Position numbers and translations under genes: made by a program | NCBI GenBank assembly: GCA_964413025.1 | Contig: CAYPRG010000002.1 | Location: forward strand, 107-64,106 | Reading direction: 5' to 3' | DNA from: an uncultured Planctomycetales bacterium | GTDB lineage: Bacteria > Omnitrophota > Gorgyraeia > Gygaellales > Profunditerraquicolaceae | DNA: 64,000 bases | Notes under the pieces: model-generated | What the model was told of the DNA's origin: nothing | The model's database searches: none | What the model saw: the letters and a program-made list of their open reading frames with translations, nothing else | In this document: positions 25,970-63,603 of the stretch, in pieces | Position numbering within the stretch: position 1 is the stretch's first letter | Layout of the letters: each line of letters opens with the position of its first letter

Positions 25970-25970
25970 G

Positions 25971-27421: not shown

Positions 27422-27422
27422 A

Positions 27423-43921: not shown

Positions 43922-44834
43922 GTGCTGCGGGCTTGATTACCCGGATTTTGAAATTATCATTTTGCCGGATAGCGTTATAAAGCAGGACCTATTACCATCG
44001 GTTTGCAAGAGCGGTGAAAAAGTAAGAATAATTCCTACTGGAGTAGTGGGGCCTTCCCAGAAGAGAGATATAGCTATGCAGCATGCAAACGGAGAAATAC
44101 TTGCTTTTATTGATGACGATGCCTATCCGGCGGAAAATTGGCTGAAAAATGCCGCGGTATATTTTAACGATAAAAATGTTGCTGCGGTAGGTGGCCCAGC
44201 GGTTACCCCTTCCGGAGATAATTTGTGGCAAGAGGCAAGCGGCCTGGTCTATTCATCAGTTTTAGTCAGCGCTAAATTCTGCTATCGTTATCTTCCTAAA
44301 ACAAAAATAGAGGTGGAAGATTATCCTACCTGTAATCTCCTGGTGCGAAAATCCGTGATGCAGCAGCTGGGGGGTTTTAATACATCTTTTTGGCCGGGGG
44401 AAGATACTAAGCTATGTTTAGATATAACTAAAAAACTGGGGAAAAAGATAATTTACGCCCCGGATGTTTTGGCTTATCATCACCGCAGGCCGTTATTCAT
44501 TCCGCATCTTAAGCAGATTGCCAGTTACGCCCTTCATAGGGGTTATTTCGTTAAACGTTACCCTGAGACTTCTCTTAAGCCGGCATATTTTATACCCAGT
44601 GTCTTTTTATTGGGCATTATCGCAGGGGCTGTTCTTGCCGGGATTTTTGAGCCCTTTAGGCAAATTTATGCTTTGGGTTTAGTTTTATATTTATTGATTA
44701 CGGCTATTTTTAGTTTTAACCGTAAGATTGCATTATCCGCCTTGATATTCCCCGGGATAATATTGACGCACCTTACTTACGGTTTATTCTTCATAAAAGG
44801 CCTGCTATCAACTAAGCTTAAGGAAGAGAAATGA
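43857..44834 (+). CDS. GT2 glycosyltransferase with C-terminal TM helices
   Basis: ISIIIAAKT, DYPDFEIIILPD and FIDDDAYP (DxD) motifs, with about three C-terminal hydrophobic helices. Overlaps the upstream GT2 by 65 nt. Confidence 0.7.
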   Translation: MTISIIIAAKTWQKNLEECVNKCCGLDYPDFEIIILPDSVIKQDLLPSVCKSGEKVRIIPTGVVGPSQKRDIAMQHANGEILAFIDDDAYPAENWLKNAAVYFNDKNVAAVGGPAVTPSGDNLWQEASGLVYSSVLVSAKFCYRYLPKTKIEVEDYPTCNLLVRKSVMQQLGGFNTSFWPGEDTKLCLDITKKLGKKIIYAPDVLAYHHRRPLFIPHLKQIASYALHRGYFVKRYPETSLKPAYFIPSVFLLGIIAGAVLAGIFEPFRQIYALGLVLYLLITAIFSFNRKIALSALIFPGIILTHLTYGLFFIKGLLSTKLKEEK

Positions 44835-46282
44835 AGATAATAATTTCTTATCCGCCCCTAAACAGCGAAAAAGGATTTCCCACTTTAGGGCAGAACCGCC
44901 AATTTCAATTTTTTAAGACCCCTACCTATATTTATCCTGTGGTTCCGGCAACTTTGGCGACCTTGCTTAAACAGGCCGGCCATGAGGTGATCTGGCTTGA
45001 TTGTATTGCTAATAATATTAATCTCAATGATTTTTTAAAAACTATCGCAAAGGAAAATCCCGATATAATCGCCTTTGAGACCAAAACCCCGGTAATTAAG
45101 GCCCACTGGAAAGTTATCGACCGGATTAAGCAAGAGTTGCCCGAAACTGCCTGTGTTTTATTCGGGGACCATGTTACCGCGCTGCCGGAGGAATCATTCC
45201 AAAATTCAAAGGTTGATTTCGTGGTTACCGGAGGCGACTACGATTTTTTACTGCTGAACTTATGCAATTATCTGACTAAGAAAGATATTATCGAGCCGGG
45301 CATCTATTATCGCGAAAGCGGGCAGATTAAGAATACCGGGTTATTCAGGCTTGAGCATGATTTGAACTCTCTGCCTTTCATAGACCGCGAGCTTACCGGT
45401 TGGAAGCTTTATGCCTATGAAAACGGCAACTACAAACGTACTCCCGGGACTTATATTATGTCCGGCAGGGACTGTTGGTGGGGTAAGTGTAGTTTTTGTT
45501 CCTGGCCGACATTGTATCCAAAATTCAGAGTAAGGAAGGTTGAGAATGTTTTGGATGAAATTGGCATGCTGATTGAAAGATTCCAAATCCGGGAAATAAT
45601 GGATGATACGGGAAGTTTTCCTACCGGAGAATGGTTAACGGATTTCTGCCATGGGATGGTTAAGAGGGGGTACCATAAAAAAATATACCTGGATTGCAAT
45701 ATGCGTTTTGGGGCATTGTCTAAAGAAGACCTAATGGCTATGAAAAAAGCGAATTTCCGGCTTTTGCTTTTTGGCTTGGAATCCGCTAATCAGAATACTT
45801 TAGACAGGATAAAAAAGAACATGAAAATTGAAGCAGTCATCCAAGGCTGTAAGTCAGCGACAAAAGCGGGATTATTTCCCCATATCACAATCATGTTTGG
45901 TTATCCATGGGAAACTTACAAGGATGCCCTTAATACCTTAAAGCTGGGTAGATGGCTTTTGAATAAGGGATATGCCTATACCATGCAGGCGACAATGGTG
46001 GTGCCTTATCCGGGTACTCCTTTATTCGCGGAATGCAAAGAAAAGGGTTGGCTTAAGACGCTTGACTGGAATGATTATGATATGAAGAAGCCGGTAATGG
46101 ATAGTCCTATTCCGGATGACAGGATTATGAAATTAGTGCGGGGGATGTATAAGGTTTCTTTTAACCCGGAATTTATCTTTAGGAAGATTTTGTCCCTGAA
46201 GGATATGGATGATTTCAGGTATGCATTGCGGGCAATTAGAAAAGTAACCGGGCATCTTTTTGACTTCGGTAAGTTTAAATAA
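44831..46282 (+). CDS. B12-binding-domain radical SAM protein (variant CX4CX2C motif)
   Basis: N-terminal Rossmann-like B12-type domain (DIIAFETKTP...LFGDHVTALPEE) and a Cys triad CWWGKCSFC. Same overall layout as the four downstream paralogs. Confidence 0.78.
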   Translation: MKIIISYPPLNSEKGFPTLGQNRQFQFFKTPTYIYPVVPATLATLLKQAGHEVIWLDCIANNINLNDFLKTIAKENPDIIAFETKTPVIKAHWKVIDRIKQELPETACVLFGDHVTALPEESFQNSKVDFVVTGGDYDFLLLNLCNYLTKKDIIEPGIYYRESGQIKNTGLFRLEHDLNSLPFIDRELTGWKLYAYENGNYKRTPGTYIMSGRDCWWGKCSFCSWPTLYPKFRVRKVENVLDEIGMLIERFQIREIMDDTGSFPTGEWLTDFCHGMVKRGYHKKIYLDCNMRFGALSKEDLMAMKKANFRLLLFGLESANQNTLDRIKKNMKIEAVIQGCKSATKAGLFPHITIMFGYPWETYKDALNTLKLGRWLLNKGYAYTMQATMVVPYPGTPLFAECKEKGWLKTLDWNDYDMKKPVMDSPIPDDRIMKLVRGMYKVSFNPEFIFRKILSLKDMDDFRYALRAIRKVTGHLFDFGKFK

Positions 46283-46286
46283 AGAA

Positions 46287-47015
46287 ATGCATAAAAAAAC
46301 ACTTTGTTTTGTCTGCCTGCATAACGAAGAGCATGTTATACGCAAGACTCTGAGTAAATTTACTCCTGAGCTGTTCGGCAAGTGGATTGATGAGTTAATT
46401 GTAATAGACGATTGTTCAAGCGATAACTCGGGCAGTATCGTGAAAGAGTTTCCCTGCCGGGTTATCCGTCATCCGGAAAACCGGGGAGTGGGGGCGGCTT
46501 TTAAAACCGCCGTAGAGTATGCCCGTAAGAACGGTTATGAAGTAATTATTTCGGTAGCCGGCAACAATAAAATGGAGCCGTCGGAAATACCGGCTCTTTT
46601 AAGGCCTATTTTTGATGAAGGTTACCACTTTGTACAAGGCTCGCGTTACCTGAAAAACGGGCACCGGGATAATATCCCTTATCAGCGTTATATCATTCAA
46701 AGAGTAGGTTCCGGCCTGATAAGGCTAATCTTCGGCTGGCCGGGGAATGACGTAAGCTGCGGTTTCAGGGCAGTGAGTATGGAGGTATTTAACCATCCTC
46801 AAGTGAATATTTTTCAGGACTGGCTTGAGAGGTATGGCCTGGAATCTTACATACAATTTAAGGCCATTCAATATGGATTCAGGATTAAACAGGTTCCGGC
46901 TTCAATGATTTATCCGTCTGACAAAAAGATCAAGTATACAAAGATTCCCAGTTTAAGGGGCTGGTGGGATATGGCATATCCCTGGATAGCCTTGAGCATA
47001 GGAATAAAAAAATAA
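46287..47015 (+). CDS. GT2 glycosyltransferase, DPM1-like
   Basis: VIDDCSSDNS, RHPENRGVGAAFKTA and GFRAVSMEVF motifs. ATG 46287 is chosen because the TTG at 46260 overlaps the upstream gene. Confidence 0.7.
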   Translation: MHKKTLCFVCLHNEEHVIRKTLSKFTPELFGKWIDELIVIDDCSSDNSGSIVKEFPCRVIRHPENRGVGAAFKTAVEYARKNGYEVIISVAGNNKMEPSEIPALLRPIFDEGYHFVQGSRYLKNGHRDNIPYQRYIIQRVGSGLIRLIFGWPGNDVSCGFRAVSMEVFNHPQVNIFQDWLERYGLESYIQFKAIQYGFRIKQVPASMIYPSDKKIKYTKIPSLRGWWDMAYPWIALSIGIKK

Positions 47016-47026
47016 CGGGGGAGCAT

Positions 47027-47896
47027 ATGAAAGGTATAATTTTAGCAGGAGGTAAAGCCACCAGGCTTTATCCTATTACAAAGGTCACCTGTAAACAGCT
47101 GCTTCCTGTTTATGACAAGCCGATGATATATTATCCCTTATCGGTGTTGATGCTGGCGGGGATACGAGAGATATTGATTATTTCTACTCCAGAGGCGCTG
47201 CCTAAATTCAAGAGCCTGTTAGGAAACGGTTTCGGCCTGGGGATTAATATCACATATCTTGAGCAAGCAGAACCAAAAGGTATCGCTGAGTCGTTTATTG
47301 TTGGAGAGAAATTTATCGGCAAAGATAACGTTTGTTTGATATTAGGGGATAATATTTTTTATGGCGATGGTTTATCAGGCCTGTTAAAGGAAGTGGTAGA
47401 GCTGGATGAAGGAGGGGTAATCTTCGGTTATTATGTAAGAGATCCTCAGCGATACGGGGTCATTGAATTTGATAAAAATTCCCGGGTAACTTCGATTAAA
47501 GAGAAGCCCAAAAAAACAACATCAAATTACGCGGTTACCGGGCTATATTTTTACGATAATAATGTTGTTAAAATCGCTAAATCTTTAAAACCTTCCTTAA
47601 GGGGAGAGTTGGAAGTTACCGATATAAATAACGAATACTTAAAACAAGGCAAGCTTGTTGTAAAACTACTGGGCAGAGGATATGCCTGGCTGGATACGGG
47701 GACATACGATTCTTTAGTCGATGCTTCGATATTTATCAAGACTATCGAAGAAAGGCAGGGGTTAAAGATAGGCTGTATCGAGGAAATAGCTTATAAGAAG
47801 GGTTATATCACCAGCAGGCAATTGGAAAAACTGGCAAAAGAGATAAATACCAGTTACGGCGAATATTTGCATAAAATTCTAAAAAATGAAAGATAA
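47027..47896 (+). CDS. rfbA: Glucose-1-phosphate thymidylyltransferase
   Basis: MKGIILAGGKATRLYPIT, KQLLPVYDKPMIYYPLS, LGDNIFYG, RYGVIEFD and AWLDTGT motifs. ATG 47027 is chosen with a GGGGGAG RBS. Confidence 0.92.
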   Translation: MKGIILAGGKATRLYPITKVTCKQLLPVYDKPMIYYPLSVLMLAGIREILIISTPEALPKFKSLLGNGFGLGINITYLEQAEPKGIAESFIVGEKFIGKDNVCLILGDNIFYGDGLSGLLKEVVELDEGGVIFGYYVRDPQRYGVIEFDKNSRVTSIKEKPKKTTSNYAVTGLYFYDNNVVKIAKSLKPSLRGELEVTDINNEYLKQGKLVVKLLGRGYAWLDTGTYDSLVDASIFIKTIEERQGLKIGCIEEIAYKKGYITSRQLEKLAKEINTSYGEYLHKILKNER

Positions 47897-48704
47897 AATC
47901 CTTATTTTTGGCGAAGGTTTTATAGGCAGCAGGCTGCAGGAGGAATTCGGATGCAGGCTTTCAGAAAGAAAGATATATTCTTTTAAGGATGCTGAAGAAG
48001 AAATCAATAAATTTTCACCAGAAATCATTATTAACTCTGCCGGGTATATAGGAAGAAACGTAGACGACTGCGAATTGGATAAAGATAAGACGCTCATGTC
48101 TAATACCTTTGTCCCGATAATTCTAAGCGAAGTGGCATTGCGGAAAAACATCAGGTTGGTTCATATAAGCTCCGGCTGCATATATCATTTTGATTATTCA
48201 AAAGATAAGCCTATCACAGAGGATAAAGCTCCGGATTTCTTCGAGCTTTTCTATAGCCGTTCAAAGATATATTCCGAGCAGGCATTAAATTTATTATCGG
48301 AAAAATACCCAATTTTGATAATAAGGATTCGTGTTCCTTTAGACAACCGGCCGCATCCCAGGAATATTCTTACTAAACTCGTTGGATACAAAAAGGTTAT
48401 TGATATCCCCAACTCGGTGACCTATATTCCTGAATTTGTTGCAGCCTTGCGTCACCTGATTGAGATTAAGGCAAAGGGGATCTTTAATATCGTAAATAAA
48501 GGGGCTTTAAGGTATTCTGAGCTGATGGATGTTTACAAAAAATACGCCCCTGGTTTTGAATATCAAACTATAGACAGTAAAACATTGGGCCTGGTAAGGA
48601 CAAACCTGATTCTATCGGTAGATAAGTTAGGGCGGTCAGGATTTAAGATGAGAAGTATAAACGAGGTGCTGGAAGAATGCGTAAAAAATTATCTAAAATC
48701 CTAG
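47886..48704 (+). CDS. Short SDR-type nucleotide-sugar reductase, RfbD-like (dTDP-4-keto-6-deoxyhexose reductase candidate)
   Basis: ILIFGEGFIGSRL Rossmann motif and YSRSKIYSE (YxxxK). About 270 aa, placed between rfbA and rfbB. Confidence 0.55.
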   Translation: MKDKILIFGEGFIGSRLQEEFGCRLSERKIYSFKDAEEEINKFSPEIIINSAGYIGRNVDDCELDKDKTLMSNTFVPIILSEVALRKNIRLVHISSGCIYHFDYSKDKPITEDKAPDFFELFYSRSKIYSEQALNLLSEKYPILIIRIRVPLDNRPHPRNILTKLVGYKKVIDIPNSVTYIPEFVAALRHLIEIKAKGIFNIVNKGALRYSELMDVYKKYAPGFEYQTIDSKTLGLVRTNLILSVDKLGRSGFKMRSINEVLEECVKNYLKS

Positions 48705-49699
48705 TAACCGGCGGCGCGGGTTTTATCGGCAGTGAGTTTGTAAGGCAGCTAGCAAACAGGGACTGTCCCCGAAGGGGGCTCCGAAGGGGACTGTCCCTGC
48801 CATATGAAGTTATAGTCCTGGATAAGCTTACCTATGCCGGAGACCTGAGCAGGCTTGAGGCTGTAAAAGGAAAATTCAGGTTTTATAAAGCAGATATCTG
48901 CAATAAAAGGCAACTCGATGAGATTTTTGAGAGAGAGAAGCCGAAGGTCATTGTCAATTTTGCCGCTGAAACTCATGTAGACAGGAGCATTAAAGACTCC
49001 GGCGTATTTTTGGAAACTAATATAAAGGGGGTCCAGGTATTGTTGGAGATTTGCAGAAAGAACAAGATTGATAAATTTATCCATATCTCGACAGATGAGG
49101 TTTACGGGGAGATAAGAAAAGGAAAGTTTACCGAAAACTCTAATCTTCAGCCGAATAGTCCCTATGCCGCATCTAAGGCAGCAGGGGATTTGCTCATTAA
49201 AGCATACATCAGGACTTATGGCTTTCCGGCAATTATAATAAGGCCGTCTAATAACTACGGCCCTTGGCAATATCCGGAGAAATTGATACCTTTGTCTATA
49301 ATTAAATTAATGCATAACAAAAGGACTCCGGTTTATGGAAAAGGCCAAAACATCAGAGAATGGCTGCATGTTTCAGATTGCGCGCGGGCGATACTTTTGG
49401 TAATGGAGAAAGGCTCACTCGGTGAAACCTACAATATCGGCAGCAGCGAAGAAAAAAGAAACATAGAGGTGGTAAAGCGGATTATTAAAAATTTGGGGAA
49501 ATCTGAAAAATTAATTGAATATGTAAATGATAGGCCAGGGCATGATTGGAGATATTCATTAGAGGTCAAAAAAATAAAAACCGAACTGGGCTGGCGGCCA
49601 AAGATAAATTTCCGGGAAGGATTAATCGATACCGTTAAGTGGTATATGGATAACAGCGATTGGCTAAACAAGTTTTTCCCAAAAATTATGCCGAGGTAA
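48677..49699 (+). CDS. rfbB: dTDP-glucose 4,6-dehydratase
   Basis: [39 protein letters not shown] and RPSNNYGPWQYPEKLIP motifs. Carries an extra segment of about 13 codons after the first helix. Confidence 0.9.
   Translation: MRKKLSKILVTGGAGFIGSEFVRQLANRDCPRRGLRRGLSLPYEVIVLDKLTYAGDLSRLEAVKGKFRFYKADICNKRQLDEIFEREKPKVIVNFAAETHVDRSIKDSGVFLETNIKGVQVLLEICRKNKIDKFIHISTDEVYGEIRKGKFTENSNLQPNSPYAASKAAGDLLIKAYIRTYGFPAIIIRPSNNYGPWQYPEKLIPLSIIKLMHNKRTPVYGKGQNIREWLHVSDCARAILLVMEKGSLGETYNIGSSEEKRNIEVVKRIIKNLGKSEKLIEYVNDRPGHDWRYSLEVKKIKTELGWRPKINFREGLIDTVKWYMDNSDWLNKFFPKIMPR
48759..48797. repeat. 39-nt GC-rich imperfect palindrome embedded in frame in rfbB
   Basis: The sequence is GGGACTGTCCCC-GAAGGGGGCTCCGAA-GGGGACTGTCCC. 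The arms pair at 11 of 12 positions with one T:T mismatch. GGGACTGTCCC and CCGAAGGGG each occur twice. About 72% G+C by my count, in an AT-rich gene. Confidence 0.6.
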
Positions 49700-49703
49700 A
49701 GAA

Positions 49704-50732
49704 ATGACAAAAAAAATTAATATCGGGATTATAGGTTGTGGTTATTGGGGCCCTAACTTTGTGCGGAATTTTAACCGGATAAAGGGAGTTTCCGTCAAGT
49801 ACGTATGCGATTTAAGCCCTGAAAGATTATCCCATATAAAGAAACTCTATCCTGATATCATCGCTACAAAAGATTATTTAAGCGTGTTGAAGGATAAAGA
49901 TATAACTGGTGTTATTGTTGCTACGCCTGCAAGCAGGCATTACAAGATAGCCAGGGAAGCATTGCTATGCGGGAAAAACATACTGGTTGAGAAACCCATT
50001 GCCATGGACTTAAATGAGGCCCGTAAGTTGATTGAACTGGCTGCCGATAAAAAAAGAATCCTTATGGTGGGGCATACTTTTAAATTTAATCCCTCGGTTA
50101 TAAAACTAAGGGGATTGATAAATAGTGGTTCACTGGGGCAGGTTTATTATATTTATTCCCGTCGGACAAACCTGGGGCCTTTAAGAAAGGACGCTAACGC
50201 AATATGGGATCTGGCTCCGCACGATATATCTATTATGAACTTTATTCTTGGTAAGGATCCGTTATCTGTAAGCGCCCAAGGGGCAAAGTATTTGCCTCAT
50301 GACCTGGAAGATGTCGCTTTTATTTCTCTTAATTATCCAAACCGGATACTCGTGCATATACATGTCAGCTGGCTTGACCCTAAAAAAACCAGGGAGATTG
50401 TAGTGGTGGGGAGCAAGAAGATGGCGGTATTTGATGATTTGAATGCGGAAACGCCGATTAGCGTTTATGATAAAAGCGTGATGAAAAAGAGATTCAAGCA
50501 GGATTATGATTCTTTTGAAGAATTTCAGATGATTATTAAAAATGGCAATGTCCAAACTCCTCAAGTTAAAAAGCAAGAGCCTTTAGGCGCCGAATGCAGC
50601 CATTTTATAGAGTGTATTAGAAAGAATAAGGCGCCTTTGACAGACGGCAAGGATGGGCTGGAAGTTTTAAAAGTATTAGTAGGTATCCATCGCTCTCTGG
50701 CTAATAATGGGAAAAATTGTTTTTTAGTATAA
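49704..50732 (+). CDS. Gfo/Idh/MocA-family oxidoreductase (nucleotide-sugar 3-dehydrogenase-like, WbpB-type candidate)
   Basis: INIGIIGCGYWGPN Rossmann motif, VEKPIA (EKP motif), and a C-terminal alpha/beta oligomerisation domain. Confidence 0.78.
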   Translation: MTKKINIGIIGCGYWGPNFVRNFNRIKGVSVKYVCDLSPERLSHIKKLYPDIIATKDYLSVLKDKDITGVIVATPASRHYKIAREALLCGKNILVEKPIAMDLNEARKLIELAADKKRILMVGHTFKFNPSVIKLRGLINSGSLGQVYYIYSRRTNLGPLRKDANAIWDLAPHDISIMNFILGKDPLSVSAQGAKYLPHDLEDVAFISLNYPNRILVHIHVSWLDPKKTREIVVVGSKKMAVFDDLNAETPISVYDKSVMKKRFKQDYDSFEEFQMIIKNGNVQTPQVKKQEPLGAECSHFIECIRKNKAPLTDGKDGLEVLKVLVGIHRSLANNGKNCFLV

Positions 50733-50747
50733 AACCAAGGAGTTAAT

Positions 50748-51203
50748 ATGATTCGTAATTGTAAAATCGGCAAAAACGTAAAGATCCCTTTTCCTGATTT
50801 GGTCAATCTTTATGAGTGCAAGATAGGAGATGGTTCATTTGTCGGCCCTTTTGTGGAAATACAAAAAGGCGTAGTTATCGGAAAAGGCTGCAGGATTCAG
50901 TCTCACGCATTTATCTGCGAAGGAGTGGGCATCGCCGACGATTGTTTCATAGGTCACGGAGTTATGTTTGTGAACGATCTTTATCCTATTTCTAATGACC
51001 CTGGCTGGAAACTAAAGAAAACTAAGATCGAGAAGGGGGTTTCAATAGGCAATAACGCTACTATCTTGCCGGTAGTGATTAAAAAGGGAAGCCTGATTGG
51101 TTCCGGCTCGGTGGTTACTAAGGATGTCTTGGCTGGAAGTATAATGGCGGGCAATCCTGCCAAGGTCATACGAAAATATAATGAACGAAGAAGAAAAGCT
51201 TAA
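50748..51203 (+). CDS. Left-handed beta-helix (hexapeptide repeat) sugar acetyltransferase
   Basis: Repeated [LIV]-G-x4 hexads (IGDGSFVGPFVEIQKGVVIGKGCRIQSHAFICEGVGIADDCFIGHGV) and a C-terminal AGNPAKVIR. Confidence 0.75.
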   Translation: MIRNCKIGKNVKIPFPDLVNLYECKIGDGSFVGPFVEIQKGVVIGKGCRIQSHAFICEGVGIADDCFIGHGVMFVNDLYPISNDPGWKLKKTKIEKGVSIGNNATILPVVIKKGSLIGSGSVVTKDVLAGSIMAGNPAKVIRKYNERRRKA

Positions 51204-52179: not shown

Positions 52180-52194
52180 AAGAGGAAACCATAT

Positions 52195-53358: not shown

Positions 53359-53362
53359 AGCC

Positions 53363-54043: not shown

Positions 54044-54046
54044 AAT

Positions 54047-55588: not shown

Positions 55589-55603
55589 CTAATGGAGGAA
55601 TAA

Positions 55604-56335
55604 ATGGCAGGTTTTAAGGATAGATTTTATTCTATGCAGGATCCGGAGCTGGGATTAGGTAACCTTGACGCCAGGCATGAAACATTACTTTCCACTCTAA
55701 ACGGGGTAATCGGGAAAGATGTCCTTGAAATAGCCTGTGGCAGCGGTGATTTTGCAAAAAAAGTCATTGACCGGTTCAAGCTCGGCAAAATTTACGGAGC
55801 AGATATCTCTGAACAGGCGATCAAGTTAGCCGCAGATAAAGGCGTAGAGGGGGCGTGCCTGAATCTGGACAAAGATAACCTGCCTTACCAGGATGGTTTT
55901 TTTGATACGGTAATCTGCGGAGAAGTGATAGAGCACCTTGTTGACCCTGACCACCTGTTGGAGGAAATTTACCGGGTGTTGAAGGCAGATGGGCATCTTC
56001 TTATTACAACGCCAAACCTTGCTTCCTGGTATAACAGGTTGCTATTATTATTTGGTTATCAGCCTTTTTTCACAAGTATCAGCATCCGTCATACTTACCC
56101 CAAGCCGGTGCCTATTCACTCCTGCGGGCATTTGTGCTCTTTTACGCTCGGGGCTTTAAAATTTTTATTGGAGAAGTACCATTTTAAGGCCTTAAAGTGT
56201 ATTGGGTTGAATATCAATGAATCGGTGGGTTACGGGGGAAAGTTTCGATGGCTGGCTAAATTGGCAAACTTTGTTTTTCGTTCGCCTTCACTTAACTCAG
56301 GAATTTGTATTTTAGCAAAAAAGGTAAACTCCTAA
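55604..56335 (+). CDS. Class I SAM-dependent methyltransferase (MetW-like pattern)
   Basis: VLEIACGSGDF motif I, VICGEVIEHLVDP, and LITTPNLASWYNRLLLLFGYQP, which resembles the MetW-like subfamily. Confidence 0.78.
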   Translation: MAGFKDRFYSMQDPELGLGNLDARHETLLSTLNGVIGKDVLEIACGSGDFAKKVIDRFKLGKIYGADISEQAIKLAADKGVEGACLNLDKDNLPYQDGFFDTVICGEVIEHLVDPDHLLEEIYRVLKADGHLLITTPNLASWYNRLLLLFGYQPFFTSISIRHTYPKPVPIHSCGHLCSFTLGALKFLLEKYHFKALKCIGLNINESVGYGGKFRWLAKLANFVFRSPSLNSGICILAKKVNS

Positions 56336-56336
56336 G

Positions 56337-57707
56337 ATGAAAGTACTATTAGTGATGCCTTTAGCTTTGCCGGCTTATCTGTTTCAGCTGGCGGCGATTT
56401 CGGCATTTCTTAAATCAAAAGGCCACTCGGTGAGGTATGAAGAGCTGGTTATCAGCAATGATTTTTCTGAAGAGCATCGAGACCAGCTAGACAGGGCAAT
56501 CAAGGAATTTAAGCCCGATATCATCGGGTTTAGTTCTTATGAGATGAGCTTTGAGTGGATCAAGTCGACCTCAGACTACTTGAAGAAAAATAATCCAAGC
56601 GTCCCCATAATTGTTGGCGGGTACCACGCCACTTTATCGCCCGAAGAAGTATTGGCGCATCATTCCATTGATATGGTTTGTATCGGGGAAGGGGAGTATC
56701 CGTTGCATGAGCTTTTAGAATCTCTTAAAAAAGGCGAAGTTGATAAAAGTATCTTTAATTTGTGGTTTAAGGACAGCGGTAAAATAATCAGGAATCCTTT
56801 GCGGCCTTTAATGGCGAACCTGGATGATTTGCCGTTTGTAGACCGGGAACTATTTACCTCAGATAACCGAAAGAACGGGTTTTTGGAAATTATGGCCAGC
56901 CGGGGCTGTCCTTTTGATTGCACTAATTGCGCAAACCACGCCCTTAAAAAAATATATGGCGGCAAGGGCGTTTATCTAAGATATCGTTCTCCGGATAATG
57001 TTATAAAAGAAATAGAGTATTGCCTGGGCAGGGAAAAATTTAAAGTTATCCAATTCGACGATGATATGTTTACGGCGAATCAGAACTGGCTTAGGGATTT
57101 CTGCGCTAAGTATAAAACCAGGATAAATCTGCCTTTTACCTGCAATATCCGCCCTGAGGCTGGGGTGACTGAGACTTTGCGTATATTAAAAGAGGCGGGA
57201 TGCATCCAGGTTTCTATCGGGGTAGAGGCAGGCGACGAGAAAATCCGCAGTAATGTGCTGCATAGAAATATGCCTGATAAGATGATTATTCAGGCTTTTA
57301 GAAATGCCAGGAAGGCGGGTATAAAAACCAAGTCTTTTAATATGGTAGGCCTGCCTCATGAAAGCCCGCTTACTTTATGGAAAACTATCCGGTTAAATCT
57401 CAGGCTTACTCCGGATAGCGTCCAGACCTCTGTCTATTATCCTTTTAAGGGCACTGTATTGGGCGATGAATGTTATAAAAATGGTTGGGTGGATCAGGCG
57501 CGTAAAAAAAGATTAAGGCTTTATGCCAATGACTCCATACTTAATCTTCCTACAGTTTCACGTTCGCTGATCAGGATCGCCAAATGGCTTAATTCCGCCA
57601 CGGTTTTAAGAAGTGGTAATTTTTCAATTATCAAAATAGGGTTTCTAATGATAATAAGGCGGTTTTTACCGAAGAAAAAACAATCTCTGCCAGCATGCCA
57701 GATATAA
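56337..57707 (+). CDS. B12-binding-domain radical SAM protein
   Basis: N-terminal domain with DIIGFSSYE...VGGYHATLSPEEVL and the CX3CX2C motif GCPFDCTNC. Confidence 0.8.
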   Translation: MKVLLVMPLALPAYLFQLAAISAFLKSKGHSVRYEELVISNDFSEEHRDQLDRAIKEFKPDIIGFSSYEMSFEWIKSTSDYLKKNNPSVPIIVGGYHATLSPEEVLAHHSIDMVCIGEGEYPLHELLESLKKGEVDKSIFNLWFKDSGKIIRNPLRPLMANLDDLPFVDRELFTSDNRKNGFLEIMASRGCPFDCTNCANHALKKIYGGKGVYLRYRSPDNVIKEIEYCLGREKFKVIQFDDDMFTANQNWLRDFCAKYKTRINLPFTCNIRPEAGVTETLRILKEAGCIQVSIGVEAGDEKIRSNVLHRNMPDKMIIQAFRNARKAGIKTKSFNMVGLPHESPLTLWKTIRLNLRLTPDSVQTSVYYPFKGTVLGDECYKNGWVDQARKKRLRLYANDSILNLPTVSRSLIRIAKWLNSATVLRSGNFSIIKIGFLMIIRRFLPKKKQSLPACQI

Positions 57708-58630
57708 AACCTTTAGTTTCCGTAATTATAGTCACCTATAACCGCAAGGACGATACGGTTGAGTGTATCGATTCTGTTTTAAAATCAACTTATAAACCCA
57801 TAGAAATAATTGTGGTGGATAATGCTTCTTCAGATGGGACAACGGAAGAACTTGAGAGCCGGTACGGTAAGAAGATTAAGCTGATTAGAAGTTACAGGAA
57901 TCTTTATGCCGGAGGAGGAAGAAACTTCGGGGCAAGAAACGCCTCGGGTGAATATCTATTGTTTGTTGATAGCGATAACATTGTTGACAGGGATATGATA
58001 AAAAATATGATAGAAGTAGAGGTAAGAAACAGGTATCTGAATATCGGAATAAGCGGCCCGTTTACCTATTACAAATCCGACCCCAAGCGTTTATGCTGGA
58101 CAAACAACCGAATGAGCCTGTCAACAAGCATCACTTTATTCGAGGGAAGCGGAGAGATTGACCAGGGGCAATATGATAATTTTGAATTGATCAAAGTCCA
58201 CCATATTCCTAACGTGTTTATGGTCCCTAAAAAAATATTCAAAGAGGTTGGCGGCATAGATAAAGATTACGTTATGCATTACGAGGAATCGGATTTGGCT
58301 GAGAAAATAAAGAAAAGATGTTTTATTGTAGCTTTATTCCCCCAGGCGAAAGTATGGCACAATGTGCCGCTTGGCAGGCAAGAAGGGCATAAGTCTTTTA
58401 AAGGGGAAAACCCCAGCATGGTTTACTATGTGTCAAGAAATAGGATTGTTTTTATGCGGAAAAACTCCGGTGGGGTGCGTTTATTTGTATTTTTAGTATT
58501 ATTTAATAATATCTTTTTATTGTACAACCTGGGTATTTTATTGTTAAATGGAAAATTTTCTTTGATGGCGCTGGCTTTAAAAGGTTATTTTGACGGTCTC
58601 TTTATGTCTTTGGGAAAAGATAATCAGTAA
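57695..58630 (+). CDS. GT2 glycosyltransferase (rhamnosyltransferase-like pattern)
   Basis: VSVIIVTYNRKDDT, VVDNASSDGT and FVDSDN (DxD) motifs, plus a C-terminal hydrophobic segment. Confidence 0.78.
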   Translation: MPDIKPLVSVIIVTYNRKDDTVECIDSVLKSTYKPIEIIVVDNASSDGTTEELESRYGKKIKLIRSYRNLYAGGGRNFGARNASGEYLLFVDSDNIVDRDMIKNMIEVEVRNRYLNIGISGPFTYYKSDPKRLCWTNNRMSLSTSITLFEGSGEIDQGQYDNFELIKVHHIPNVFMVPKKIFKEVGGIDKDYVMHYEESDLAEKIKKRCFIVALFPQAKVWHNVPLGRQEGHKSFKGENPSMVYYVSRNRIVFMRKNSGGVRLFVFLVLFNNIFLLYNLGILLLNGKFSLMALALKGYFDGLFMSLGKDNQ

Positions 58631-60093
58631 TGAAAATATTATTCATTAACCCCTGGACTAAATCCTTGTTTGGAGATGAAAAACAAGTCAGCGGCCACCC
58701 GCATATCGGCCTGTCTTATCTTATTGCCGCGTGTAAAAAGGCGGGCTATAAGGATGTTAAGGTTTTTGACCAGGGGCTAGAAAAGGATGACAGCAAATTA
58801 TTTTCGCTTATTTCTTCATATAAGCCCGATTTAGTGGGAGTTACAACTTTTAGTTTTTGCTATAAATACGCCAAGGCGGTAATCGATGGAATTAAAGATA
58901 AATTTCCCGGCTTACTGTTAATTGCCGGAGGGCCGCATGTTTCCGCTACCAAGGCCCACATTCTAAAGAATACAAAAGCGGATTTCGCCATGAAAGGGGA
59001 ATCCGAGATTAGTTTTATTAAATTTTTAAAAGAATTAGAACAGCCAAAGCCTGATTTTAGCCGGGTGAATAATCTTATCTGGAGAGACGGCGATTCCTGC
59101 GTTGAGAATCAGGATGAAGGGTATATTAAGGACCTGGATAGCATATCATTCCCTGATTACGAAGCATTCGGCATAGAAAGGTATCCTGCATACGTCCAGC
59201 ATCTGATGCCTATAATTACCTCGAGAGGCTGCCCTTACGGCTGTAATTATTGCTGTATCAGGCTTACCATGGGCAGGAATTTCAGGGCCCGCAGCCCGGA
59301 AAACGTGGTAGCCGAGATGAAAGATTTAAAAGATAAATATAAAATAAATCATTTTGAAATTAACGACGATTGCTTCGCTTTTGATTCAAAAAGAGCGGAG
59401 AAGATTTGCGATTTGATTTCGGATAGCCGGCTGGATATCCGTTACGAGCTTTATAACGGCATCAGGGCTGATAATGTAAACGAGCAGCTTCTTAGAAAGA
59501 TGAAAGAGAGCGGTTGTATCTTTATCTCATATGGCTGCGAGTCGGGAAATCAGGAGATCGTCAATAAATATATCGGCAAGAACCTTGATTTAAAGAAAGT
59601 CATCCAGGCTGTTGATCTTACCAATAAAATCGGGATCAAGAATTCAGTTAATTTTATTATCGGCCATCCGGGCGAGACTTATAAGACGGCGATGGATACG
59701 CTCAGGTTTGCCGGTTCGCTAAAAACTAACTTCGTGAATATGTATAATCTGATCCCATATCCCGGGACTGAACTTTTTGACTGGATAACCAAGAATTCAA
59801 CTTATATGATGCCGGTAGAGGATTATCTGGAAACCGTCGGCAGCAGGGATTTTCCGCCTGTTTTTGAAACTAAAGAATTCACCAGAAAAGAGAGGACCCG
59901 GGTGCTTAAAAAAGGCTACGCCTTATACGAAAAAACACTATTGCAGTTTCGCCTGGGAAAACCGCTGGGCTTGATCGTTTATTATCTTTGCAGGAACAGG
60001 TTTATCTTTAAACTGGGCAGGAGTATGGTTTTCGATGGAAAAATCGGCTCGAAAATCTACAGATTATTGAGCAGAAAGTCTAAAGCAAATTAA
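58630..60093 (+). CDS. B12-binding-domain radical SAM protein
   Basis: MKILFINPW..., DLVGVTTFS, AGGPHVSATKAHIL, and the CX3CX2C motif GCPYGCNYC. Close paralog of the 61111 gene. Confidence 0.85.
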   Translation: MKILFINPWTKSLFGDEKQVSGHPHIGLSYLIAACKKAGYKDVKVFDQGLEKDDSKLFSLISSYKPDLVGVTTFSFCYKYAKAVIDGIKDKFPGLLLIAGGPHVSATKAHILKNTKADFAMKGESEISFIKFLKELEQPKPDFSRVNNLIWRDGDSCVENQDEGYIKDLDSISFPDYEAFGIERYPAYVQHLMPIITSRGCPYGCNYCCIRLTMGRNFRARSPENVVAEMKDLKDKYKINHFEINDDCFAFDSKRAEKICDLISDSRLDIRYELYNGIRADNVNEQLLRKMKESGCIFISYGCESGNQEIVNKYIGKNLDLKKVIQAVDLTNKIGIKNSVNFIIGHPGETYKTAMDTLRFAGSLKTNFVNMYNLIPYPGTELFDWITKNSTYMMPVEDYLETVGSRDFPPVFETKEFTRKERTRVLKKGYALYEKTLLQFRLGKPLGLIVYYLCRNRFIFKLGRSMVFDGKIGSKIYRLLSRKSKAN

Positions 60094-60094
60094 G

Positions 60095-61114
60095 ATGTCG
60101 GCAAACCTAGAGGCTTTTTATAAAGATTTCCAGGATTTCTATAAAACAGATAAATGCGTGGCTTGCGGTGAAAGCATAATCGATAATGGCCATTTCTTTT
60201 CCCGGGTTTATTCGGAAGATATGGGCAAAAAGAATAATGTTTATCTTTGCTTAAACTGCGGTTTGGCTTATGCCCATCCCTTCCTTGGTATTGAAGAAGA
60301 AAAAAGAATCTATGAAGATTATATTGCCCACCACTTTTCTGAGTATATGGCTAGTAACCAGGCTGATATTCAGTTTAAATTCCAGGATAAGCTTAATGAT
60401 CTATTTGGCGGCGTCTTATTTAAGAGCCGGAATGTCTGGTTAAAAAAAATTGTTTCTGGTTTTTTGCTGCAAAGAGCGCTGATTACTTATCCGATTTATT
60501 CGAATACCATACATGGGTCTTTAAAGGTGCTTGATATCGGCTGCGGCGACGGTTATTTTTTAAAAAAAGCAAAAGGGTTCGGGTGCCTATGTTATGGAAC
60601 AGAATACCATGACGCACTTATTAGCCGCCTGCGTGCCCAGGGGATAAAAGCAAACTTAAGGATGGAAGATTTTCAAAAAGATATAAAAAGCAACCAGGAT
60701 AAATTTGATGTTATCAGGATTAATTGGGTTTTGGAGCATGTTATCCGGCCGCAGGATATGCTTAAAGAGGCAAGGAATCTACTGAAGGATGATGGTGAGT
60801 TGATAATAGGTGTACCTAATTTCAATACGCCTTCCAGGGCGTTTAAAGAGCATTTCCAGATGCATATACCTCAGCACAGGCAGCTTTTTACTAAAAAGAG
60901 CTTAAGAAAAATGCTCGAAGCATGCGGCTTTAAGGCAGTGTATATAAGGACAAAATCAATAGGGATTTTGGGCCCTACCCTGGCAAGAAGATGTGGTTTT
61001 AAATCGGTAAATATTCCTTTCAGGCTGGCGGATATCTTTTGTTCGGTTGTTTTTGATTTATTTAATATCGGCGATTGCTTTGAGGTTTACGCAAAGAAAC
61101 GGGGTAATAAATGA
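60095..61114 (+). CDS. Class I SAM-dependent methyltransferase with an N-terminal zinc ribbon
   Basis: CVACG...CLNCG ribbon, with VLDIGCGDGYF, VLEHV and DDGELIIGVPN motifs. Confidence 0.75.
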   Translation: MSANLEAFYKDFQDFYKTDKCVACGESIIDNGHFFSRVYSEDMGKKNNVYLCLNCGLAYAHPFLGIEEEKRIYEDYIAHHFSEYMASNQADIQFKFQDKLNDLFGGVLFKSRNVWLKKIVSGFLLQRALITYPIYSNTIHGSLKVLDIGCGDGYFLKKAKGFGCLCYGTEYHDALISRLRAQGIKANLRMEDFQKDIKSNQDKFDVIRINWVLEHVIRPQDMLKEARNLLKDDGELIIGVPNFNTPSRAFKEHFQMHIPQHRQLFTKKSLRKMLEACGFKAVYIRTKSIGILGPTLARRCGFKSVNIPFRLADIFCSVVFDLFNIGDCFEVYAKKRGNK

Positions 61115-62652
61115 AGATTTGCCTGGTCAATCCGCCATTAGTGTTATCTTCGCAGCACGTAAACCGGCCAACACCGTTTTACCCTATGGGCCTGCTTTAT
61201 GTAGCGTCAGCGCTGGAAGCTAATCATCAAGTTTTAATAATCGACGCACTGGCGGAAGGCTGGAAGAATGTCCATAAAATTGAAGTAAACGGCGAAGATA
61301 AATGGTATGGGGGCCTGGAATTTGAGGAAATTGCGAAGAGTATAAAAGAAAATGGCGTTAAATTAGTGGGAATAACTTTGCCTTTTTCGATAAGCCATTG
61401 GAGTGCTCAAAGGGCCGCCTCTGTTATAAAAGCAGCCGATAAGAACATTATCACCGTGCTTGGCGGCCATCACGTTACGGTCAGGCCGCAGGAGGTTTTA
61501 TTAAATAAAGACGTTGATTATATTGTTGTTGGAGAAGGCGAATATACAATGCTTGAGCTGGCAGATGCGCTTGAGCAAGGTAATTTCGCGGCCCTGGAAA
61601 GAATCGAGGGTATCGGGTATAAAGTTGACGGCAAGCCGGTAATTAATCCTGTCCGAAAGCAGGCCCAGGATTTAGATAAGCTGGCTTTTCCAGCAAGGCA
61701 TCTGTTGAACCTGGAAAATTATTTCTCGGCGGTAGAAGCCGGGCAATCGCCCCGTGGCGATTATCTCCCGGCAGGAAAAAAATGGGCTACAGTGATAACC
61801 AGCCGCGGTTGCCCCTACGAATGCGTATTTTGCGCAATACACTTGACTATGGGCAGGAAGTGGAGGCCGCGCAGCGCGCAGAATGTGGTAAAAGAAATAG
61901 AAGAATTGGTTAATAAATACGGCATAAGGCATTTAACAATCGAAGATGATAATATGACCTTTGATACAGCCAGGGCCAAAGAGATATGTGATTTGATTAT
62001 TCAAAGAAATCTGGGTATTACCTGGTGCATGCCAAACGGAGTAAGGGCAGATGCCCTGGACGACGAATTAGTAAAGAAGATGAAGGCCTCAGGCTGTACC
62101 GAGGTATTTGTGGCTCCTGAATCCGGTGACCAGGATGTAGTGAATAGTATTATTAAAAAAAGGATAGATTTAAAAAAGATAGAAGAGGCTGTTAAACTTT
62201 TCAAAAAATACGGGATAAATGTTAATGCGGTTTTTGTGATTGGCTGTATCGGGGAAACTAAAGAGAATATCCGGCAAAGTATGCGTTTTGCCAGGAAGCT
62301 GATACAACTGGGCGCTAAAGGGGTGTGTGCGAATATTGCTACCCCATATTATGGCACAGAGCTATACCGGCAGGCAAAAGAAAAGGGGTATTTGCTGGAT
62401 ATACTTAATGACGAGCGTTTAAGTTCCGCGCAGCCTTTAATCTCAACGCCCGAGCTTACGCCTAAAGAGCTTCAGGAATTCAAGAATCAATTTTACATTA
62501 TTAACCCTGCGACAGGAATAATAAGAATTATATTGAGCATGGTTTTTTCTAATCCGAGATTATTAGTCGAAGCAATGTTCTCGTTAAGAACATGGAGTTT
62601 TTTTGCCAGTGAAATGAAAAGCCGGATTTTTTGTTTGAGAAGAGCGGCTTAG
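61111..62652 (+). CDS. B12-binding-domain radical SAM protein
   Basis: MKICLVNPP..., LVGITLPFS, LGGHHVTVRPQEVL, and the CX3CX2C motif GCPYECVFC. Confidence 0.85.
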   Translation: MKICLVNPPLVLSSQHVNRPTPFYPMGLLYVASALEANHQVLIIDALAEGWKNVHKIEVNGEDKWYGGLEFEEIAKSIKENGVKLVGITLPFSISHWSAQRAASVIKAADKNIITVLGGHHVTVRPQEVLLNKDVDYIVVGEGEYTMLELADALEQGNFAALERIEGIGYKVDGKPVINPVRKQAQDLDKLAFPARHLLNLENYFSAVEAGQSPRGDYLPAGKKWATVITSRGCPYECVFCAIHLTMGRKWRPRSAQNVVKEIEELVNKYGIRHLTIEDDNMTFDTARAKEICDLIIQRNLGITWCMPNGVRADALDDELVKKMKASGCTEVFVAPESGDQDVVNSIIKKRIDLKKIEEAVKLFKKYGINVNAVFVIGCIGETKENIRQSMRFARKLIQLGAKGVCANIATPYYGTELYRQAKEKGYLLDILNDERLSSAQPLISTPELTPKELQEFKNQFYIINPATGIIRIILSMVFSNPRLLVEAMFSLRTWSFFASEMKSRIFCLRRAA

Positions 62653-62666
62653 TCAAAGGAGTTAGT

Positions 62667-63593
62667 TTGCAGCCAGTCCTTGAGAATATAAATTGCCCGG
62701 TTTGCGGCAGCGCTGAGCATAAATTAGTTTTTAAAGCCAGGGATCTGCGCCTTAAGACCTGCGGGGAAGCATTCTGCGTGGTCGCTTGCGTTAATTGTGG
62801 TTTTCTTTTCCTGAATCCCAGGCCGGTAAAAGAAGATGCGATAAAATTCTATCCCGTGGATTTCAATATGGAGACCCCGACATTAATACATAGGCTGTTG
62901 AGCGTCAGTTTGTCCGCTATAAAAAATTCTATCGTATCAAAATTAAAAAAATACAAAAAGGAAGGCACGTTACTTGATATTGGTTGCGGCAGCGGAAGTT
63001 TTTTGTCGTTAATGCAGGAGCAGGGGTATGACGTTTTGGGGTGCGAGTTAAACCCTAATTCAAAAAAATTTGCACCGAAATCCCTTGATGGAAGGATTAT
63101 CTATAAAAAATTGCCGGAATGTAATTTTCTCGCGAAGTCTTTTGACATTGTCACCATGATCCAGTCATTGGAGCATGTGCATGAAGTGGACAGGCTTTTT
63201 CTGGAGATTAAAAGGATCATTAAAGATGACGGCATAATATATATTTATGTCCCGAATTCTGATTTCTTTGAATCCGCCTTTTTCGGCCCGTATTATTTTA
63301 ATCTGGAAGTACCCAGGCACCTTTATTATTTCACCCGTAAAAGCATGAAGGGGTTCTTGCAAAATCATGGTTTTAAAGTCGACCGTTTCTTCAAGAACCA
63401 TATCCTGGAAATTGCTTCGACTCCCAGTTCCCTGCATTATGGTTTATGGTCCTGGCTGGAAGATAAAAATATCTTTAAAAATAAGACGCTTAAGTATTTG
63501 ACATTCATTCCGCTTATTTTTTGTAGAATTTTACTGCGTTTTATTTTTATATTTAATGACCAGAATATAGAAGTGGTATGTTATAAGGAATAG
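62667..63593 (+). CDS. Class I SAM-dependent methyltransferase with an N-terminal zinc ribbon
   Basis: CPVCG...CVNCG ribbon, with LLDIGCGSGSF, SLEHV and DDGIIYIYVPN motifs. TTG 62667 is preferred (AAAGGAG RBS 5 nt upstream); the alternative start at 62631 would overlap the upstream gene. Confidence 0.75.
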   Translation: MQPVLENINCPVCGSAEHKLVFKARDLRLKTCGEAFCVVACVNCGFLFLNPRPVKEDAIKFYPVDFNMETPTLIHRLLSVSLSAIKNSIVSKLKKYKKEGTLLDIGCGSGSFLSLMQEQGYDVLGCELNPNSKKFAPKSLDGRIIYKKLPECNFLAKSFDIVTMIQSLEHVHEVDRLFLEIKRIIKDDGIIYIYVPNSDFFESAFFGPYYFNLEVPRHLYYFTRKSMKGFLQNHGFKVDRFFKNHILEIASTPSSLHYGLWSWLEDKNIFKNKTLKYLTFIPLIFCRILLRFIFIFNDQNIEVVCYKE

Positions 63594-63603
63594 AGGATTG
63601 TAG

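Follow-up and report, generated by a model that had tools for sequence, protein, structure and literature searches.

Among the characterized radical S-adenosylmethionine (SAM) enzymes of class B, the cobalamin-dependent type, several act on sugars or head groups (GenK, GenD1, Fms7, MoeK5 and HpnJ), and a hexose head group is the substrate of another radical SAM enzyme, the calditol synthase Cds, which converts it. Here we describe a locus in which five proteins of the B12 type (rSAM1 to rSAM5) are encoded among glycosyltransferases, nucleotide-sugar enzymes and class I methyltransferases; it begins at position 41907 of a 64,000-nucleotide stretch, which we call the window, of contig CAYPRG010000002.1 (assembly GCA_964413025.1) from an uncultured bacterium of the phylum Omnitrophota. 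With moderate confidence we read it as a cell-envelope glycoconjugate operon in which a conserved core is joined to a variable tailoring cassette and class B radical SAM enzymes modify the sugars.

GenK, GenD1, Fms7 and MoeK5 resemble rSAM1 to rSAM5 in that an N-terminal B12-type Rossmann domain precedes a radical SAM barrel, in that glycoconjugate sugars are their substrates (the presumed substrates here as well), and in that class I methyltransferases and glycosyltransferases accompany them in their clusters; GenD1 also shares the CX4CX2C spacing of rSAM1. They differ in that membership of rSAM1 to rSAM5 in their families could not be shown at the sequence level, and in that they come from antibiotic clusters, whereas the window holds a surface-glycan operon with a flippase, family 2 glycosyltransferases (GT2) and five such enzymes. 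In the synthesis of the bacteriohopanepolyol head group, a GT2 enzyme, HpnI, likewise stands beside a B12-type radical SAM protein, HpnJ, which rearranges a lipid-linked sugar, and HpnJ is the best partial NCBIfam match of rSAM1 (159 bits, nearly full length) and of rSAM3; these scores, however, lie far below the cut-off of 577.6 bits, the locus has no hopanoid genes, and its core adds a flippase and a second GT2 enzyme. AprD4 (Protein Data Bank entry 6fd2), the 1,2-diol dehydratase of the apramycin pathway, is the best structure match for rSAM3 to rSAM5 by sequence and for rSAM1 and rSAM5 by fold, and its substrate, paromamine, is a sugar; yet AprD4 binds no cobalamin, and its likeness to the window proteins is confined to the radical SAM core, with at most 115 bits against a family cut-off of 500. 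Loci of the O-antigen or capsule type share with the window a flippase-like protein, many glycosyltransferases, RmlA and RmlB, and a conserved edge next to a variable, recombining center, but the window has no initiating phosphoglycosyltransferase, Wzy, Wzz, RmlC or bona fide RmlD.

An earlier reading of this DNA (the sequence-only reading) knew of no characterized polysaccharide pathway with so many class B enzymes, and neither NCBIfam family searches nor the literature searched yielded a characterized pathway that matches. We know of no characterized Wzx-type surface-polysaccharide locus with class B radical SAM enzymes, and the literature searched gave no description of them in a cell-surface polysaccharide locus. 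Polysaccharide cassettes have been reported as hypervariable regions in Omnitrophota, with class B enzymes unmentioned in that context (10.64898/2026.06.07.730766), and the largest sequence groups among the approximately 83,589 class B radical SAM accessions are without known function (PMC12931638, 2026).

Gene order of the operon

From 41907 to the end of the window, 22 consecutive open reading frames (ORFs), all on the + strand, overlap or are separated by gaps of at most 22 nt; they form a single, tightly packed operon that continues past position 64000. Apart from a probable flippase and a membrane protein at its two visible ends, the operon encodes five B12-type radical SAM proteins, four methyltransferases of class I and six glycosyltransferases; RmlA and RmlB, a reductase resembling RmlD, an oxidoreductase of the GFO/IDH/MocA type and an acyltransferase with hexapeptide repeats complete the set:

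41907..43130, +: probable MOP/Wzx-type flippase, about 11 transmembrane segments by hydropathy; first gene of the conserved core
43127..43921, +: GT2a, soluble family 2 glycosyltransferase, like polyprenyl-phosphate-sugar synthases (PF00535, 103.8 bits); conserved core
43857..44834, +: GT2b, family 2 glycosyltransferase (PF00535, PF13641); conserved core
44831..46282, +: rSAM1, 483 aa, CX4CX2C (PF02310, 48.8 bits; PF04055, 57.6 bits); conserved core
46260..47015, +: GT2c, glycosyltransferase (PF00535, 75.7 bits)
46964..47896, +: RmlA, glucose-1-phosphate thymidylyltransferase (TIGR01207, 451.8 bits; cut-off 360.65)
47886..48704, +: short-chain dehydrogenase/reductase, distantly RmlD-like, candidate 4-ketoreductase (PF04321, 45.5 bits)
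48677..49699, +: RmlB, dTDP-glucose 4,6-dehydratase (TIGR01181, 434.3 bits; cut-off 365.1)
49704..50732, +: GFO/IDH/MocA sugar oxidoreductase, UDP-GlcNAc 3-dehydrogenase-like (PF01408, PF22725; NF040723, 212 bits, cut-off 450)
50748..51203, +: hexapeptide-repeat acyltransferase (PF00132, 72.8 bits; partial NeuD/PglB/VioB match)
51181..52179, +: GT2d, glycosyltransferase (PF00535, 59.4 bits)
52195..53358, +: GT4, glycosyltransferase (PF00534, 58.4 bits)
53363..54043, +: MT226, class I methyltransferase (PF08241, 39.8 bits)
54047..55588, +: rSAM2, 513 aa, CX3CX2C (PF02310, 53 bits; PF04055, 43.8 bits)
55604..56335, +: MT243, generic class I methyltransferase (PF08241, 73.8 bits)
56337..57707, +: rSAM3, 456 aa, CX3CX2C (PF02310, 79.8 bits; PF04055, 71.7 bits)
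57695..58630, +: GT2e, glycosyltransferase (PF00535, 105.4 bits)
58630..60093, +: rSAM4, 487 aa, CX3CX2C (PF04055, 81.4 bits; PF02310, 52.3 bits)
60095..61114, +: MT339, class I methyltransferase (PF13489, 81.7 bits)
61111..62652, +: rSAM5, 513 aa, CX3CX2C (PF04055, 83.2 bits; PF02310, 67.4 bits)
62631..63593, +: MT320, class I methyltransferase (PF13489, 87.3 bits)
63598..64000, +: multi-pass membrane protein, N-terminal part up to the end of the window (from the translation)

The nine radical SAM and methyltransferase genes that the sequence-only reading had placed here lie where it put them, all on the + strand, and their order from 53363 onward (MT-rSAM-MT-rSAM-GT2-rSAM-MT-rSAM-MT, with MT for methyltransferase) was given correctly. 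The proposed glycan-assembly context is likewise borne out by Pfam matches for all six glycosyltransferases, five of GT2 and one of GT4, and by RmlA and RmlB, both of which exceed their NCBIfam equivalog cut-offs and confirm the dTDP-sugar genes of that reading.

Five radical SAM proteins of class B architecture

All five radical SAM proteins exceed the Pfam gathering cut-offs for the B12-binding (PF02310, 32.1 bits) and Radical_SAM (PF04055, 29.5 bits) hidden Markov models, at 48.8-79.8 and 43.8-83.2 bits, respectively; the B12-binding match is weakest in rSAM1, and in many rSAM1 orthologs the precomputed PF02310 match is weak or missing. The GG.H motifs and Cys triads listed in the sequence-only reading are all present in the translations, but the triad is not uniform: rSAM1 has C-WWGK-C-SF-C, that is, CX4CX2C instead of the canonical CX3CX2C. 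OxsB and GenD1, both cobalamin enzymes with sugar substrates, are reported to have the CX4CX2C spacing too. Pairwise identities among the five are 25-35%, with rSAM4 and rSAM5 the closest pair (35%), and the neighbors of these two, MT339 and MT320, are the closest pair of methyltransferases (30%). Judged from their sequences, the five are old, unequal paralogs, which revises the earlier interpretation, with rSAM1 belonging to a phylum-wide core and rSAM2 to rSAM5 to a variable cassette.

No curated NCBIfam cut-off (HpnJ, BchE, HpnR, PhpK, Sden_1168, ApyD, BzaD, MgmA, KedN5 or TsrM) is reached by any of the five. The best scores are 225.2 bits for rSAM5 against Sden_1168 (cut-off 575), 193.8 bits for rSAM4 against ApyD (cut-off 750) and the 159 bits of rSAM1 against HpnJ; the best partial matches overall are to HpnJ, BchE, ApyD, the Sden_1168 P-methyltransferase and AprD4, those to the HpnJ, BchE and Sden_1168 models extending over the full length, whereas the AprD4 model scores 34-114.6 bits against its cut-off of 500 and aligns with the radical SAM core alone. 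Solved structures are all remote by sequence: AprD4 is the best for the radical SAM core of rSAM3 to rSAM5 (E 1.7e-17 to 7.3e-26), TokK and OxsB are the best for rSAM2, and MgmA (9ccb) is the best for rSAM1. With a profile of the rSAM5 family, the N-terminal domain aligns with OxsB, TokK, CysS and MgmA, and AprD4 aligns only from about residue 180; the profile alignment to TokK, consulted for the residues that would stack on the cofactor or be its lower axial ligand, has a gap around W76, where it is unreliable, and places W215 opposite a Val.

AlphaFold2 models of rSAM5 and rSAM1 (predicted local distance difference test scores of 90.4 and 76.8, respectively) retrieve with Foldseek AprD4, MgmA, TsrM, CysS, TokK and OxsB in the case of rSAM5, and AprD4, MgmA, OxsB and TsrM as the best matches in the case of rSAM1. 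Template-modeling (TM) scores, normalized to query length, are 0.59-0.70 against TokK, TsrM, OxsB and MgmA, and AprD4 does equally well or better, being the top match of both models (TM 0.66-0.77). The N-terminal alignments together with the model matches support a class B architecture, so that the two-domain layout proposed earlier stands, for all five proteins on hidden Markov models and for rSAM1 and rSAM5 on fold as well. The C-terminal helices of rSAM2 to rSAM5 are hydrophobic or basic, as would suit work at the membrane.

A core conserved across Omnitrophota

More than 100 homologs of rSAM1 were found, at 64-98% identity (typically about 70%), and every named one is from Omnitrophota. 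Mean column identity across 24 orthologs is 67%, and C215, C220 and C223, together with the CX4CX2C spacing, are invariant. The order flippase-GT2a-GT2b-rSAM1 recurs in three distant Omnitrophota contigs (L088, L089 and L090), with identities to the window of 69-71% for rSAM1, 62-70% for GT2a, 54-61% for GT2b and 34-50% for the flippase. The genes that follow differ from genome to genome and often include other B12-type radical SAM proteins and class I methyltransferases. These four genes thus appear, from sequence comparison, as a core conserved throughout the phylum.

Neither Pfam (E≤0.1) nor NCBIfam nor a phmmer search of the Protein Data Bank (E≤10) gave a direct match for the product of the first core gene, and its identity as a flippase therefore derives from the three syntenic orthologs, which carry precomputed PF01943 (Polysacc_synt) matches. 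For the Wzx-like flippase described earlier there are the 11 or so transmembrane segments and the orthologs, and no match of the protein's own. For GT2a, the best partial NCBIfam matches are to PpgS, AglJ and ArnC-like models, all below cut-off, and GT2b has three C-terminal hydrophobic segments, with transmembrane segments within residues 241-309.

A variable, recombining cassette

Downstream of the core, related loci (numbered contigs below) keep many of the cassette genes, in the same or in altered order:

Window: MT226-rSAM2-MT243-rSAM3-GT2e-rSAM4-MT339-rSAM5-MT320-membrane protein
L091: order as in the window
L002: rSAM3-GT2e-MT226-rSAM2-MT243-rSAM4-MT339-rSAM5 (fused to a methyltransferase)
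L092 (387-kb contig that also encodes an rSAM1 of 90% identity): GT4-MT226-rSAM3-GT2e-rSAM4-MT339-MT320
L090 and L094: rSAM2, then the MT226 ortholog

No remnants of rSAM2, MT243 or rSAM5 are found in L092, from which all three are absent. In the relatives rSAM3 always precedes GT2e, and the pair is kept in L002, L091 and L092; MT226 adjoins rSAM2 orthologs in L002, L090, L091, L093 and L094, in inverted order in L090 and L094. (A metagenome scan with MT226 gave four loci from fairly close relatives, which we used for gene order and not for statistics.) Stable small blocks are thus seen, rSAM2 with MT226 or MT243 and rSAM3 with GT2e.

Ratios of nonsynonymous to synonymous substitution (dN/dS) are 0.03-0.17 for all genes tested, including 0.048 for rSAM2 against L091 and 0.046-0.053 for rSAM4, which argues for purifying selection on real, functional genes. 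Between the window and L091, two close strains, neighboring genes differ five-fold in synonymous divergence, from 0.165 to 0.91 (MT243, 0.165; rSAM2, 0.34; rSAM3, 0.78; GT2e, 0.91), and this points to recombination; such mosaic divergence is typical of recombining surface-glycan cassettes.

On L002, a 774-aa ORF (P0004, positions 9771-12095) joins rSAM5 to a methyltransferase part that has diverged. We considered this fusion as Rosetta-stone evidence and set it aside as weak, its junction being a T-run indel, for which a genuine fusion and a fault of assembly are both possible.

Distribution beyond the phylum

Among the candidates scored, the rSAM5 family has 1837 homologs at E≤1e-20, in Omnitrophota, Dehalococcoidia, Bathyarchaeia and others; the named close homologs are all from Omnitrophica/Omnitrophota, and a cluster member of rSAM4 (≥90%) is annotated as Candidatus Omnitrophota. 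We counted neighbors in 80 distant loci, taking one genome per species. At least two B12-type radical SAM genes occur in 43 of them and at least three in 24, and the largest array has eight within 21 kb, so that the density of class B enzymes in the window, remarked on earlier, is not exceptional. At least one glycosyltransferase is present in 37 loci, at least one class I methyltransferase in 33, and two or more radical SAM genes together with a methyltransferase and a glycosyltransferase in 11; the loci with this full triad come from bacteria and archaea (Bathyarchaeota, Pacearchaeota, Woesearchaeota, Hecatella, Pirellulales and others). Proteins of the PQQ-like β-propeller type, all large, account for 15 of the 132 unlabeled neighbors of rSAM5-family genes (many in Bathyarchaeia), and CobD/CbiB for 12 (many archaeal), the latter tying the rSAM5 family to corrinoids; these neighbors also show that the family does not act on glycans in every case.

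Arrays of up to eight paralogs of rSAM5 relatives (L004 to L021 and others, many from Bathyarchaeia) are interleaved with CobD/CbiB and PQQ-like proteins, and most have no glycosyltransferase. A further form is a protein of about 860 aa (P0013, P0019, P0032, P0039, P0052, P0057 and P0067) in which an rSAM5-like unit is joined to a second radical SAM domain with SPASM; these fusions occur in Omnitrophica, Firestonebacteria and Spirochaetota.

We take the window to hold a genuine, uncharacterized variant of class B radical SAM tailoring of sugars; it hints at unusual radical modifications, and similar arrays are widespread in uncultivated anaerobes. A broader proposition, which we advance tentatively and hold to be possible but doubtful, is that such enzymes are routine tailoring enzymes of lipid-linked surface glycans in uncultivated anaerobes, bacterial and archaeal, giving C-methylated or rearranged sugars new to envelope glycobiology, and that in Omnitrophota the phylum-wide module of flippase, two GT2 enzymes and rSAM1 makes a core envelope glycoconjugate, which strain-variable cassettes of radical SAM proteins and methyltransferases diversify. 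If envelope sugars were C-methylated or rearranged in this way, it would mean new chemistry for bacterial and archaeal surfaces and would account for some of the many unexplained radical SAM genes in genomes of Omnitrophota, Bathyarchaeia and DPANN. Host-dependent nanobacteria would then need corrinoids to build their envelopes. The locus and its relatives offer a test system, in which rSAM1 as the core enzyme and the natural presence/absence variants of rSAM2 and rSAM5 could link an enzyme to a sugar modification.

A model and its alternatives

Domain content, fold and the structure of the operon are observed, as are purifying selection and the pattern of conservation, and on them we base a model of two layers, in which the substrates, the reaction types and, from the sequences, the use of B12 by rSAM1 to rSAM5 are what we infer. 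The flippase, GT2a, GT2b and rSAM1 would produce a sugar unit, or a short glycan, linked to a lipid, on which rSAM1 could perform radical chemistry before export. The dTDP-6-deoxyhexose genes, the other glycosyltransferases, four radical SAM proteins and four class I methyltransferases would constitute a tailoring cassette, each tailoring enzyme most likely working at a position of its own while the glycan grows, anchored to the membrane. We posit that the radical SAM proteins act on unactivated sugar carbons, plausibly by C-methylation via methylcobalamin, the most frequent known outcome for class B enzymes, or alternatively by ring contraction, dehydration or epimerization, and that hydroxyl groups, amino groups or keto-sugar nucleotides are the targets of the class I methyltransferases. 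Glycoprotein modification is also possible. In this model the two enzyme types came to be interleaved because small blocks were inserted, lost and shuffled, as happens in variable surface-polysaccharide loci elsewhere.

Several observations weigh against this model. With no curated family cut-off reached by any of the five proteins, no reaction can be transferred by homology; nor does membership in the rSAM5 family imply a glycan substrate, since many relatives, such as those of the Bathyarchaeia arrays, sit in loci without glycosyltransferases. Four of the five have as their nearest solved structure AprD4, which binds no cobalamin (rSAM3 to rSAM5 by sequence, rSAM1 and rSAM5 by fold). Genes for cobalamin uptake or synthesis were not found in the 64-kb window, and an Rfam scan of all of it matched no family, hence no cobalamin riboswitch. 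Finally, the annotated ORFs from 41907 to 64000 include no initiating phosphoglycosyltransferase, Wzy or chain-length regulator, leaving the assembly route incomplete as seen in the window; in L090, a Wzy_C gene is present upstream of the core.

Some of these points feed a different explanation, that some or all of the five are cobalamin-free, AprD4-like radical sugar dehydratases, oxidases or epimerases, with deoxy or keto sugars as products, and that all methyl groups come from the class I enzymes. Despite their Rossmann-like domains, AprD4 and ArsL bind no cobalamin, and sequence features cannot tell methylases from other class B enzymes (PMC12931638, 2026); the top rank of AprD4 in the sequence and Foldseek comparisons, the window devoid of cobalamin genes and riboswitch, and the presence of a reductase-like short-chain dehydrogenase and a GFO oxidoreductase would all suit it. 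We nevertheless regard it as unlikely: the similarity to AprD4 begins at about residue 180, within the radical SAM core, and stays at 34-115 bits against 500, the N-terminal domains pass the Pfam B12-binding threshold and align with OxsB, TokK, CysS and MgmA, and CobD/CbiB genes stand beside distant, often archaeal relatives. A lipid substrate in place of the sugars, be it a membrane lipid or the lipid moiety of a glycolipid, to be methylated, cyclized or cross-linked in the manner of HpnP/HpnR, GrsA/B or Hgm, strikes us as improbable. The neighbors are glycosyltransferases, nucleotide-sugar enzymes, methyltransferases and glycan-type membrane proteins, with no lipid-synthesis gene in the operon, and both the rSAM1 core and the distant MT339 orthologs always occur among glycan genes; the best partial NCBIfam matches do include HpnJ, HpnR and a ladderane-lipid B12-type radical SAM family, at scores far below the lipid-family cut-offs, and the hydrophobic C-terminal helices would fit a lipid modifier. 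Known lipid modifiers include B12-type radical SAM enzymes, and genes for membrane-spanning lipids have been reported in Omnitrophota (10.1101/2023.10.20.563219). We also considered a peptide substrate of the RiPP type, made on the ribosome and modified after translation, and rejected it because gaps of at most 22 nt leave no room for a precursor gene and no peptidase or transporter is present.

The other question for the glycan model is how the radical SAM proteins and methyltransferases relate. The sequence-only reading saw in their adjacency a two-enzyme module, and this stands for rSAM2 with MT226 or MT243, but not for rSAM1 and rSAM3, which have no fixed methyltransferase partner (that of rSAM3 being GT2e), nor for rSAM5, absent from L092 where MT339 and MT320 are kept. 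An obligate unit, in which each radical SAM protein and its neighboring class I methyltransferase would, for example, pass a substrate or a methyl group from one to the other, we consider quite unlikely, even though four of the five radical SAM genes overlap or nearly abut a methyltransferase gene, the MT226-type neighbor of rSAM2 persists in five related loci despite inversion, and rSAM2 and MT243 were lost together in L092. Beyond this genome the adjacency is enriched only 2.4-fold: methyltransferases make up 8.3% of radical SAM neighbors against 3.7% of other genes in the 80 distant loci (Fisher p = 0.005), and direct adjacency occurs in just 19 of them. A distant MT339 ortholog overlaps a B12-type radical SAM gene in L086, but those in L085 and L087 adjoin none, and the fusion encoded on L002, which would favor an obligate unit, stems from the T-run indel and may be an assembly error. 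To our knowledge, no characterized class B methylase needs a helper methyltransferase. In our reading the two are not an obligate complex.

Methyltransferases and other glycan genes

All four methyltransferases match Methyltransf_11/23/25 above cut-off, as the earlier class I assignment implied. MT226 has motif I at its N terminus and a hydrophobic insertion at residues 22-40; MT243 and MT320 find generic class I structures only. For MT320, public gene calls place the start at 62667, and the corresponding call in L001 is 308 aa. MT339, whose family is rare (about 22 full-length orthologs among 5.8 billion proteins), carries an N-terminal, zinc-ribbon-like segment of four cysteines (CxxC...CxxC), a pattern also found at the N terminus of MT320. 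Its best structure matches are the sugar 3-C-methyltransferase TcaB9 and KijD1, which likewise have a four-Cys N-terminal segment before the class I fold, and the locus in which MT339 sits makes dTDP-4-keto-6-deoxyglucose; the TcaB9 match, however, is a weak one (E 4.9e-7) confined to the methyltransferase core, and the zinc-binding and C-terminal domains specific to the TcaB9/TylC3-type family have no Pfam match in MT339. Seen together with RmlA and RmlB, this weak match makes it conceivable that MT339, as a class I enzyme, C-methylates a dTDP-4-keto sugar. Distant MT339 orthologs always lie among GT2, YfhO and DUF6311 genes, with a B12-type radical SAM gene adjoining in L086, two genes off in L085 and none nearby in L087.

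The RmlD-like protein scores 55.6 bits with TIGR01214 (cut-off 224) and is not a bona fide RmlD, and RmlC is absent from the window, so that the full RmlABCD set is not present; judged by these genes, the product is likely a dTDP-6-deoxyhexose other than dTDP-L-rhamnose. The membrane protein that begins at 63598 is 55-60% identical to proteins encoded at 12127-13944 of L002 and 6745-8460 of L003. Its orthologs are 571-605 aa long and DUF6311-like, a faint DUF6311 match being on record for that in L003 and none appearing in a fresh Pfam scan; from its sequence it is possibly a GT-C-type transferase.

The rest of the window

G+C content varies from 39 to 47% across the window, and every ORF of at least 120 aa lies on the + strand; GC skew is positive in all 2-kb bins along these 64 kb of strictly codirectional genes. 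Upstream of the glycan locus are housekeeping genes, namely hrcA-grpE-dnaK-dnaJ, miaA, hflX, those for RNase G, ribosomal protein L21 and Obg, proB/proA, nadD, rpe, and those for phosphoglucomutase, ribosomal protein S1 and tyrosyl-tRNA synthetase.

A cluster resembling type IV pilus or type II secretion genes occupies 24918-30715, with two pilin-like genes bearing N_methyl motifs, PilM, PilO and a secretin. It is followed at 30716-31048 by a 110-aa ORF that precedes and overlaps the RNase G gene and matches DUF2344 over the first 95 of 176 positions only. The usual companion of DUF2344 is a B12-binding radical SAM protein of the TIGR03960 type; no such gene adjoins this ORF. An 803-aa protein encoded at 17742-20153, whose only Pfam match is a marginal one to LptD_N (E 5e-4), is flanked on one side by a transaldolase-like gene and on the other by two genes for nucleotide-sugar dehydrogenases. 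These two encode UDP-glucose/GDP-mannose dehydrogenase paralogs in tandem, and two genes for NAD-dependent epimerases come after them; nucleotide-sugar genes thus form another block at 20191-24691, which is 17 kb upstream of the operon. Polyprenyl-phosphate sugars may also be used by the product of a gene well away from the main locus, at 1794-3644, a 616-aa membrane protein of the PMT_2 family (GT-C type) that has TPR repeats at its C terminus.

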